Shown one piece after another: positions 56,802 through 58,971 of a stretch of DNA of 64,000 nt. The stretch is from Muribaculaceae bacterium (lineage in GTDB: Bacteria; Bacteroidota; Bacteroidia; Bacteroidales; Muribaculaceae): assembly GCA_029058745.1 (NCBI GenBank), contig JAIDXM010000049.1, positions 109,069 through 173,068 of the forward strand. Reading direction: 5' to 3'. A program made the position numbers and the translations under genes. Each line of letters starts with the position of its first letter. Position 1 is the stretch's first letter. The notes beneath the pieces are model-generated. The model was not told the origin of the DNA. It ran no database searches and saw only the letters and a list, made by a program, of their open reading frames with translations.

Positions 56802-57443
56802 ATGAAGAAAATTGTAATGTCCGCTATAATGGTAGTGGTCGGATTGACAGCTATCGCTCAGAACCGATGGAACGTCTATGCGGGAGGAAGTATTTCACAC
56901 GATTGTGGAGGGTATTTTGAATGGAATGCTGATGGAGACACTGGTTTCGACTGGGGAGGCGGTGCATTCCTTGGAGGAGGTTATGAAATCAATTTCAACA
57001 ATCACTGGAGTATTACGCCATCGGTAGAAATCCAATATATCGACAACGGTGTATATTATAATAAGACAGGGGTTCCCGGTTATAATTCTACCACTGATAT
57101 ATGGACAGACTCCTGGTCATTCAATATCCCCGTTACGGCAGGATTCCGTTTCCCGGTGAGCGATAATGTCAGCTTTAAGATTGACGGAGGTTTTTATCTC
57201 AGTGAGGCATTCTACAAGCGACAATATAAGAATGTGGCGGCAGTGAATGCGGAGCCTCAATTGGAGAAAAAGAAGGCATCATCTGACTTCGGCAATGACT
57301 TCCAGCTTGGAGTGGTTGGCGGTGTGTCAGTAGAGACGGGTCGTCATTTCTCCTACTTCTTCCGCACGCAATATCCCTTCTTGAAAGACAGGTGGAGTTC
57401 AAAGACCATTACCCTTGCCATCGGGGTGAAATATTCCTTCTGA
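56802..57443 (+). CDS. Small outer-membrane beta-barrel protein (OmpA-like/porin-family barrel)
   Basis: 213 aa. Signal peptide ending AIAQ, alternating-hydrophobicity strands, Gly/aromatic-rich, terminal LAIGVKYSF with C-terminal Phe. Confidence 0.7.
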   Translation: MKKIVMSAIMVVVGLTAIAQNRWNVYAGGSISHDCGGYFEWNADGDTGFDWGGGAFLGGGYEINFNNHWSITPSVEIQYIDNGVYYNKTGVPGYNSTTDIWTDSWSFNIPVTAGFRFPVSDNVSFKIDGGFYLSEAFYKRQYKNVAAVNAEPQLEKKKASSDFGNDFQLGVVGGVSVETGRHFSYFFRTQYPFLKDRWSSKTITLAIGVKYSF

Positions 57444-57466
57444 GAATCGGGACAGAAGGTTTACAT

Positions 57467-57530
57467 CCATAGAAGGCATCCGGAAGGATAACATCACCAC
57501 GTGTGTTATCCTTCCGGATGCCTTCTATGG
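57467..57530. terminator. Perfect 27-bp inverted repeat; bidirectional terminator between convergent genes
   Basis: ccatagaaggcatccggaaggataaca (57467-57493) and tgttatccttccggatgccttctatgg (57504-57530) with a 10-nt loop. Confidence 0.75.
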
Positions 57531-57567
57531 GCCCTTTCAGCCCTGGGTATGTATGGGGGTCAATGAG

Positions 57568-58971
57568 TCATGGGCGCAGGAGATAGAATACGGCTCCTGT
57601 GGGATGCCACTCGTTTTTCTTTCCGTAGCTGTTTGCCGCCTCGATTGTGTATGCGTAGCGATTTCCGTCGGAAATCTCATACAGAGGCACGCAAGTCTCG
57701 GTTCTCTCTTTGAGCACATAGCCGAGGCGTTTCCATTCCACGGTAGGCTGGATTAGCGACAGAATCTGGTTGCCGTCGGTGTCAAGATTGGAATAAAGGG
57801 GAAGGGGAGTGGTCTCGGTCGGTTCCGAGGAGAGGGCGCCAAGTACACCGTAAGACTTTATACCAGACTTGTCGAGAGCCGCAGAGGCTTCCGCAGAGGC
57901 CACATAACGATACACCAGGCCATCGGAGTTCTGGAACAGAGGGATGTTTCTCTCCAGTTTTGTCTGCGCCTCGCTGATATACTTCCTTATCGAGGTGTCC
58001 ACCTGTGCGGCGAGTTCCCTGTCGGCGATTGCCACAGACAGAGGATGCAGGCCGCTGATGTCGATAAGTCCATAGTTGCCTGATTCTCCCGTCTTCCACC
58101 ATTCGTCGATTGAAGCGAGTATAGCCTTTTCCTCGTCATATTCCACAACATCGGTTTTTCCGCCAATGAACGTCACATTCAGTCTCGCCCCATAGTTGTA
58201 GAGGGATGAGAGTTTGTCGGCCAACACACCATTGAACGCCCCCTCAATGGAAGCCGATGCGGCACGGAATCCGTCGAGCAGAGGCGTGAGGTCGGTGCCG
58301 GCGGAAGGGAGGTATGCGCTGTATATCTCCCTCATGGCGAGTCCTGCCGATGCCCGCGAAATGAAGTGGGTTCCGTATTTCCTGACCAGACCGTCTGCCG
58401 AAAGCAACGCCAGGTCGGCGGTGAACTCGTCGGATAGATAGCGCCTTACAGTGACGTCAGTGCCCGGGAATCCTGCAATCACATACCTCTGCCATGTGGT
58501 CTGCATCACATAGCTTGAATTGGAAGAGGCCTGTCCGATTGTACCCGTGAAATAATAATCGCGGTTGGCGCCGTCGGAGCTTTCTCCGAGATTGGCCATA
58601 AGGTCGGACAGAAGGCTTCTGGCATCCTCACCGAGATATGTCTCTCCGGAATTGTAGGCCGGCGCGGAGAACACCGAGAACGCGTCGTCGGGCATACGCT
58701 CCGTATCCACCACGGAGGCTCTCAGAGATGAGGGGTCGAGATAGTCGCCGGTGACGTCATATCCGTGTCCCACAATCGCACGTATGCCCTCGAAATCCCG
58801 ACGGGACACCTCCATAAGGCAACCGCTGCTTGCCGGGCTGATATAGAAGTCGGTCACCACCGGTTTAGGACTCGGGTCAGGCCCCGGACGGGAGTTCTCC
58901 ACCTTTGGAGAATCCCCGCAGGACATAATCAAGGGGGAGAGCAGGATGGGAAGAATGTATATCTTTTTCAT
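57568..58971 (-). CDS. MACPF-domain lipoprotein (BSAP-like candidate antimicrobial protein)
   Basis: Start trimmed to the ATG at 58971 (MKKIYILPILLSPLIMSCGD, lipobox). MACPF entry motif VGHGYDVTGDYL and signature YGTHFISRASAGL (consensus Y/W-G-T/S-H-F/Y-x6-G-G; the second G is L here). About 160-aa extra C-terminal domain. Confidence 0.7.
   Translation of the reverse strand: MKKIYILPILLSPLIMSCGDSPKVENSRPGPDPSPKPVVTDFYISPASSGCLMEVSRRDFEGIRAIVGHGYDVTGDYLDPSSLRASVVDTERMPDDAFSVFSAPAYNSGETYLGEDARSLLSDLMANLGESSDGANRDYYFTGTIGQASSNSSYVMQTTWQRYVIAGFPGTDVTVRRYLSDEFTADLALLSADGLVRKYGTHFISRASAGLAMREIYSAYLPSAGTDLTPLLDGFRAASASIEGAFNGVLADKLSSLYNYGARLNVTFIGGKTDVVEYDEEKAILASIDEWWKTGESGNYGLIDISGLHPLSVAIADRELAAQVDTSIRKYISEAQTKLERNIPLFQNSDGLVYRYVASAEASAALDKSGIKSYGVLGALSSEPTETTPLPLYSNLDTDGNQILSLIQPTVEWKRLGYVLKERTETCVPLYEISDGNRYAYTIEAANSYGKKNEWHPTGAVFYLLRP

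Follow-up and report, generated by a model that had tools for sequence, protein, structure and literature searches.

Is the small outer-membrane beta-barrel gene that lies tail to tail with a MACPF lipoprotein gene in a Muribaculaceae genome the resistant copy of that lipoprotein's target, or is it an unrelated neighbor? The question is raised by a stretch of 64,000 nucleotides from a Muribaculaceae bacterium (GenBank assembly GCA_029058745.1, contig JAIDXM010000049.1), hereafter the window, in which a 467-amino-acid (aa) lipoprotein is encoded at 57568-58971 on the minus strand and a 213-aa barrel at 56802-57443 on the plus strand, in the interval between thrC and topA. A preliminary description of the locus likened it to that of BSAP-1, a Bacteroidales secreted antimicrobial protein (BSAP), and proposed that the lipoprotein is a toxin and the adjacent barrel its resistant target. 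A toxin gene lying beside a resistant ortholog of its receptor has published precedent (PMC4999547). Comparison with related loci leads us to a different answer, to which we assign a probability of about 0.62, namely that a native MACPF-DUF5648 lipoprotein of BSAP group 1 architecture stands beside a separately acquired, unrelated barrel cassette.

On the evidence of sequence profiles and a structural model, the gene at 57568-58971 is predicted to encode a real MACPF-fold lipoprotein. The features first noted for it, i.e., an open reading frame of 467 aa, a lipoprotein signal (LIMSC, Cys18), a MACPF motif and signature and an extra C-terminal domain of ~126 aa, were all recovered. The predicted domain plan consists of a signal peptide with lipobox (residues 1-18, LIMS-C18; 58918-58971, minus strand), drawn from the family alignment; a Pro-rich tether (residues 19-48; 58828-58917, minus strand), largely within the segment in which the predicted local distance difference test score (pLDDT) is <50 (residues 1-46); the putative MACPF pore-forming domain (residues ~49-341; 57949-58827, minus strand), delimited by the AlphaFold (AF2) model, Foldseek and profile comparison; and a C-terminal domain with three putative repeats (residues 342-467; 57571-57948, minus strand), delimited by profile alignment. 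A longer open reading frame of 493 aa, beginning at 59049, was considered as an alternative start and finds no support in the family alignment. The lipobox Cys precedes GDSP and is kept by 30 of the 31 family members, as in a lipoprotein processed by signal peptidase II and lipidated at this Cys. The sequence after cleavage, C-G-D-S-P, contains a single acidic residue, which is conserved and is weaker than the published acidic-rich export signals; it may act as a weak lipoprotein export signal. The protein carries the motifs GHGYDVTGDYL and YGTHFISRASAGL, and within the MACPF domain GHGYDVTG and YGTHF-x6-G are accompanied by helix clusters at ~113-152 and ~221-259, at the positions of the two transmembrane hairpin regions (TMH1 and TMH2).

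Neither a single-sequence NCBIfam search nor phmmer against the PDB returned a match for the MACPF protein, so that a family profile was needed for its identification. The family is tight, with 33 homolog clusters at 41-72% identity, and its profile matches the insecticidal MACPF protein GNIP1Aa (6FBM) with an E-value of 1.2e-7. A profile search of 1.84 billion representatives recovered 1096 relatives; among the 37 of these that were scanned, 28 match the Pfam MACPF model (PF01823) and 11 match DUF5648, and PF01823 is likewise matched by 20 of 31 members of the family itself. Relatives that pass PF01823 include P0040 (38.2 bits), P0044 (34.3 bits) and P0042 (24.4 bits), and two of them, P0042 and P0043, clear the Pfam cut-offs for both MACPF and DUF5648 and can be aligned with the family from end to end. 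The AF2 model has a pLDDT of 77 overall and of >90 for most of residues 50-340, and it contains the bent central sheet with two flanking helical clusters (TMH1 and TMH2) by which we defined the MACPF fold. Its top Foldseek matches are exclusively MACPF proteins (E 1e-13 to 1e-10), namely 2QP2 (Plu-MACPF), 6FBM (GNIP1Aa), 8B6V (Mpf2Ba1), 3NSJ (perforin) and 3KK7 (Bth-MACPF, BT_3439). The best matches, GNIP1Aa, Plu-MACPF and BT_3439, share with the window protein a MACPF fold followed by an extra C-terminal domain, but they are only 12-14% identical to it, have different C-terminal domains, come from other organisms and have other or unknown targets. The assignment thus holds because the family profile reaches 6FBM, because the predicted fold is that of MACPF proteins, and because the protein is homologous over its full length to relatives that Pfam recognizes. 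Since the Pfam model misses the family, censuses based on PF01823 would overlook it.

The C-terminal domain is assigned to the DUF5648 type, and with it to group 1, by transitive homology. The A1 profile aligns full-length to P0042, through the C-terminal domain (hhalign E 6.9e-40), and residues 366-490 of P0042 match DUF5648 (PF18885) with 40.5 bits against a cut-off of 25. Direct DUF5648 searches with the isolated C-terminal domains of the family were subthreshold (best 20.3 bits, E 6.7e-4), and hhalign self-comparison of the three putative repeats was weak (best P 0.0018). The domain, presumed to be the receptor-binding module, has a mean identity across the family of 63%, rising to 83% in the last repeat, compared with 42% for the MACPF domain and 28% for the TMH2 region. 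Between two barrel-type species it is 78-83% identical, with 90-95% in the last repeat. This pattern is the reverse of that expected from diversifying receptor specificity. Given that conservation peaks in the C-terminal domain and that every sampled relative has the gene, the ligand is probably conserved rather than strain-specific.

DUF5648 C-terminal domains characterize group 1, the largest class of Bacteroidota MACPF lipoproteins, which includes BSAP-2, BSAP-3 and M068_0191 (Borgini et al. 2025, PMC12853789). All three target O-antigen, i.e., glycans of lipopolysaccharide (LPS), and the protein-targeting BSAP-1 and BSAP-4 have other C-terminal domains (PMC12853789). Like the three group 1 proteins, the window protein lacks a structured N-terminal domain and is built of a lipoprotein signal, a disordered tether, a MACPF domain and a C-terminal domain of the DUF5648 type. 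It differs from them in having its highest conservation in the C-terminal domain and in not passing PF01823; their genes are strain-variable and lie beside LPS-glycan loci that confer resistance, whereas the window gene is fixed and syntenic between topA and thrC. The resemblance to the BSAP-1 locus lies in the adjacency of a MACPF lipoprotein gene and an outer-membrane beta-barrel gene. In Bacteroides fragilis, BSAP-1's C-terminal domain is a 38-aa unstructured tail that binds a protein receptor, this receptor exists as the pair OmpS/OmpR (B1R), a 62-kDa, 14-stranded barrel of the FadL family, and producer and sensitive strains differ at the locus (PMC4999547, PMC12853789, bioRxiv 10.64898/2026.08.05.742979). 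The window instead has a 126-aa DUF5648 domain and a 213-aa PF13505 barrel without any match to the FadL family in Pfam, and the three conspecific loci compared showed no presence/absence pattern. BSAP-1 was recently reported to require activation by a protease, a C11 enzyme of the target cell; an N-terminal Arg cleavage site, described as conserved in BSAPs, is not shared across the window family, most members of which have a tether without R or K.

The MACPF gene is native to the lineage, being vertically inherited and syntenic in a Muribaculaceae clade. It lies directly downstream of topA (59177-61525 in the window) in relatives down to 44% identity, the adjacency being found in L002, L004, L007, L010, L016, L017, L019, L020, L021 and L026, which are Muribaculaceae metagenome-assembled genomes (MAGs) or, for L019, Lepagella muris (NM04_E33). 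Its direct convergent neighbor is thrC (51667-52974 in the window), with neither island nor barrel, in L004, L007, L008, L014, L016, L017, L020 and L021. Other contexts include different housekeeping genes (L012, L013, L015 and L018), a position before a DUF5128 gene (L026) and a position after a C10-peptidase pair (L022). The identities of the MACPF and topA proteins fall together, from 99/99 through 70/87 to 44-48/81%, which fits vertical descent with a faster clock for the MACPF protein. At least 12 lineages carry the MACPF gene without a barrel in reach, and a search of the MACPF loci with all 90 barrel-family proteins found no barrels outside three species, the window's own and two sisters of it. 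As a separate observation, a C10 cysteine peptidase and lipoprotein pair adjoins the MACPF gene in L002 (10668-13011) and in L022 (2401-4690), on opposite sides, and its members are 43% and 36% identical between these loci; the pair deserves mention in view of the protease activation reported for BSAP-1.

Base composition separates the two convergent genes. An AT-rich island at ~53000-57250 (GC content 0.35-0.42) contains the four plus-strand genes between 53109 and 57443, whose GC content at third codon positions (GC3) is 0.37-0.49, with 0.486 for the barrel gene. The MACPF gene has a GC content of 0.552 and a GC3 of 0.643, as compared with 0.658 for thrC, 0.632 for topA and 0.688 for gyrB, and the boundary in composition falls close to the hairpin between the barrel and MACPF genes. 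The preliminary description had placed the whole locus in an AT-rich island between thrC and topA; the island and its flanks are there, but the MACPF gene lies outside it. Elsewhere, the GC content of the whole window is 0.504, compared with ~0.55 in housekeeping genes, and the window probably holds more AT-rich acquired regions beyond the interval studied here.

The barrel cassette, by contrast with the native MACPF gene, is horizontally acquired. The preliminary identification of a 213-aa outer-membrane beta-barrel at 56802-57443 is borne out by two Pfam models, OMP_b-brl (PF13505; 47.4 bits, cut-off 28.7) and OMP_b-brl_2 (PF13568; 43.1 bits, cut-off 27), and by a signal peptide ending in AIA-QN and a C-terminal YSF; a weak match to the PorP/SprF family was also seen (E 0.003). 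The other genes of the cassette, all on the plus strand, are a gene for a 551-aa tetratricopeptide repeat (TPR) protein (53109-54764), which comes first, a gene for a small secreted protein of 131 aa (55016-55411) and a gene for a DUF4848-like lipoprotein of 349 aa (55638-56687), with the barrel gene last. The barrel family comprises 90 diverse clusters at 37-76% identity, in which strands are conserved, loops are variable and the C-terminal YSF is retained. A metagenome scan added 20 further independent barrel loci, and in the 22 barrel-family loci outside the thrC-topA interval neither a MACPF-family gene nor a MACPF signature was found within reach. In 10 metagenome loci from gut Bacteroidales (L038, L043, L044, L046, L049-L053 and L058), the barrel homolog is immediately preceded, on its own strand, by a homolog of the 349-aa lipoprotein. 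Because the lipoprotein recurs upstream in these 10 loci and no MACPF gene is found near the barrel in the 22, the lipoprotein is the conserved neighbor of the barrel and most likely its functional partner, rather than the MACPF protein. No description of this lipoprotein-barrel pairing was found in the literature searched. In one of the 10 loci, L038, three tandem barrel paralogs follow the lipoprotein.

The 349-aa lipoprotein has the fold of BT3222 (4LB8, DUF4848; Foldseek E 6.4e-13, profile E 8.5e-4), and the barrel's Pfam matches are those of the small Bacteroidales "porin family" barrels. The 131-aa protein has a visible signal peptide and homologs that are 59-82% identical in the islands of L002, L010 and L059; at its C-terminus there is a weak match to Por_Secre_tail, the type A sorting domain of the type IX secretion system (E 0.076). 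The 551-aa TPR protein, a candidate regulator, has an N-terminal lipobox, one predicted transmembrane segment and weak matches to TPR_12 and BT3442_fam, and its homologs, 53-54% identical, head the island in L002, L010, L035 and L059. In L030 and L031 a TPR protein (579 aa in L030) lies directly upstream of a barrel relative; these come from samples in which the P0011 MACPF gene stands beside thrC and the 60%-identical barrel is located elsewhere, behind the TPR protein. In L032 a barrel relative is carried on a conjugative-transposon-like element. The match of the TPR protein to the NCBIfam BT3442 family (E 3e-8) brings with it a side observation, in that the MACPF protein BT_3439 (3KK7) lies three locus tags away in B. 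thetaiotaomicron; this proximity may be a coincidence or a deeper neighborhood link. In the human-gut MAG MGYG-HGUT-01643 (L035-L037 and L010), the island contains two barrel genes (L035, 8001-11421): a window-type barrel (76% identical) with its N-terminus in another frame, followed by an insertion sequence (rve) and then by a second barrel type (53%) beside the MACPF gene. The window-type copy in L035 is likely a pseudogene, apparently frameshifted.

The two genes converge on a perfect 27-nt inverted repeat (57467-57530; arms 57467-57493 and 57504-57530, with a 10-nt loop). It had been called a perfect terminator shared by both genes; the perfect repeat between convergent genes stands, but a T-run is wanting on both sides of the 27-bp stem, so that it does not qualify as a canonical Rho-independent terminator, unlike the topA terminator (59100-59135, minus strand), a canonical hairpin with a T-run between topA and the MACPF gene. 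From the latter it follows that the MACPF gene forms its own transcription unit. The Bacteroides -7 motif TAnnTTTG is absent upstream of both the MACPF gene and the barrel gene. MACPF orthologs in most relatives are followed by long hairpins of unrelated sequence, and long hairpins seem to be a usual gene-end structure in this lineage; the 27-bp hairpin is probably a bidirectional terminator or an RNA-end hairpin. Near-perfect hairpins of ~11-20 bp downstream of the MACPF orthologs were recorded in L002, L004, L007, L010, L012, L014 and L015. The 27-bp palindrome was also considered as a repeated element and rejected, since it occurs once in the window (none of 100 shuffles reached two matches) and the hairpins of relatives are unrelated in sequence.

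That the hairpin and the adjacency together mark the end of a mobile element carrying both genes is an explanation we regard as barely credible. The closeness of the composition boundary to the hairpin speaks for it, as do the insertion sequence in the island of L035-L037 and the one barrel relative on a conjugative-transposon-like element. Against these stand the native GC3 of the MACPF gene and its identical position in island-free genomes, the single occurrence of the hairpin in the window and its absence from relatives, and the lack of any integrase, tRNA or flanking direct repeats in the window that would delimit the island as a discrete mobile element. Neither the MACPF nor the barrel protein has a match among the plasmids of PLSDB (tblastn).

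If the producer had gained the toxin gene and, along with it, the barrel as a resistant ortholog of the target, strains of the same species lacking the MACPF gene should carry a divergent barrel. The conspecific set consists of the window, L059 and L060. L060 is identical to the window. Between L059 and the window, the thrC, topA and MACPF proteins are 99% identical and the barrel 93%, and nearly all of the barrel changes fall among residues 1-57, where a recombination junction lies; beyond residue 57 only two residues differ. In L059 (3854-9451, corresponding to window 53533-56794) the interior of the island has been replaced, with one breakpoint within the 5' end of the barrel gene: the TPR protein shows only 54% identity, and two lipoproteins of 530 and 118 aa take the place of the 349-aa lipoprotein. 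The strain-variable part is therefore the island interior, and neither the MACPF gene nor the mature barrel. The comparison of the thrC-topA interval that the preliminary description had proposed, for MACPF-less strains with a divergent barrel, yields the MACPF gene in three of three loci, with essentially the same mature barrel.

Several observations count against the reading we prefer. The conspecific set was found through the MACPF or barrel proteins, so that strains lacking the MACPF gene would escape it. In the three island-bearing species the gene nearest to the MACPF gene is always a barrel, and in L059 the conserved block that includes the MACPF gene also retains the barrel, although the island is otherwise exchanged; a functional link between the two, though unlikely, is therefore conceivable. 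Unlike at the BSAP-2 and BSAP-3 loci, there are no LPS-glycan genes near the window MACPF gene: topA, gyrB, thrABC and the four island genes make up its neighborhood over 10 kb, none of them is recorded with a glycosyltransferase family, and within this distance no adjacency to O-antigen or LPS-glycan genes of the BSAP-2/3 type was seen, so that the preferred reading offers no account of how a producer would protect itself. The remaining points concern the domain assignments. A DUF5648 search of the window protein itself gave no match; the AF2 model is poor at residues 426-467; the signature (Y/W-G-T/S-H-F/Y-x6-G-G) reads YGTHF-ISRASA-GL, its final G being L family-wide; and a simple hydrophobic-moment scan of the putative TMH regions, aimed at amphipathic beta segments, proved uninformative. 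Pfam PF01823 scores the window protein at only 12.8 bits (cut-off 21.5; E 0.14; 23 residues matched), and on this search alone the protein would come close to failing as a MACPF member, but the family profile, the Pfam-passing relatives and the predicted fold support the assignment.

The observations on barrel adjacency are in line with a BSAP-1-like toxin directed at a surface barrel of sensitive strains, with the 213-aa barrel as the producer's co-acquired resistant ortholog. The architecture of the MACPF lipoprotein, the immediately adjacent and convergent barrel, the diversity of the barrel family with its variable loops and the published precedent for such an arrangement (PMC4999547) all fit this explanation, and so does the finding that the barrels beside the MACPF gene are only 51-53% identical between sister species whose topA is 87% identical. 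We nevertheless consider it highly unlikely. The C-terminal domain is of the glycan-associated DUF5648 type, not of the BSAP-1 type, and is the most conserved region; the known BSAP-1 receptor is a 62-kDa FadL barrel; and the three conspecific loci show no presence/absence pattern. Co-acquisition of the two genes finds no support in their GC3 (0.643 for MACPF and 0.486 for the barrel), in the native MACPF gene that stands barrel-free in at least 12 lineages or in the 22 barrel loci without MACPF, in 10 of which the barrel pairs with an upstream homolog of the 349-aa lipoprotein. The proposal of a toxin with an adjacent resistant target is thus not upheld.

A different alternative accepts the native MACPF gene and assigns it a non-weapon, lineage-wide role, either at eukaryotic, host or protist membranes or as a non-lytic, glycan-binding surface function. 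We regard this as rather unlikely, although much of the evidence is compatible with it. All clade members sampled have the gene at the same place, and it is under purifying selection within the species, where its codon differences (18 synonymous and four non-synonymous) are the same as those of thrC. The receptor-binding domain is conserved rather than diversified, and resistance or glycan-modification genes were not found nearby. Among Bacteroides MACPF proteins, no antimicrobial activity was detected for BACUNI_00959 and the receptor of Bt_3439 is unknown according to the literature, and the closest solved relatives are insecticidal (GNIP1Aa and Mpf2Ba1) or have an unknown target (Plu-MACPF). 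On the other hand, all characterized Bacteroidota members with a DUF5648-type domain (BSAP-2, BSAP-3 and M068_0191) are bactericidal, and the fast evolution of the MACPF domain, with a mean identity of 28% in TMH2, is compatible with antagonistic co-evolution.

Under the preferred reading of a native group 1 protein beside an acquired cassette, the MACPF protein, by homology with characterized relatives, most likely would act as a surface- or vesicle-borne, glycan-directed pore former. Either the cell surface or outer-membrane vesicles would carry it, and its C-terminal domain would bind a surface glycan of the target cell, of the LPS or lipooligosaccharide (LOS) type. Oligomerization of the MACPF domain would follow, with both of its helical clusters refolding to form a beta-barrel pore. 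The AT-rich, recombining cassette at 53109-57443, with the TPR protein, the secreted protein, the lipoprotein and the barrel, would have been inserted between the MACPF gene and thrC, at a site where gene content varies among lineages, and the shared hairpin probably just ends two convergent transcription units.

In the mouse gut, Muribaculaceae form a major part of the microbiota. The literature searched contained no account of MACPF proteins or toxins in this family. What is mildly new here is a MACPF gene that is fixed lineage-wide, has a conserved C-terminal domain and encodes a protein to which the Pfam MACPF model is blind. We tentatively entertain the possibility, doubtful as it is at present, that the protein represents a "core" BSAP-like protein, with a fixed position across the clade and a receptor-binding domain more conserved than its pore-forming domain. 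If so, its ligand would be conserved and its role would differ from that of the strain-level, co-acquired toxin and resistance pairs of Bacteroides; it could then serve in antagonism between species or genera, directed at a conserved glycan, or in a non-antagonistic membrane function. The locus also indicates that finding a MACPF gene next to a barrel gene does not by itself suffice to infer a toxin with its resistant target, since the comparative context assigns the barrel to a separate mobile lipoprotein-barrel cassette. Should the MACPF protein prove active, BSAP-type antagonism would reach the Muribaculaceae as well, and the known strain-variable toxins would be joined by a variant that is species-wide and keeps its receptor domain conserved.

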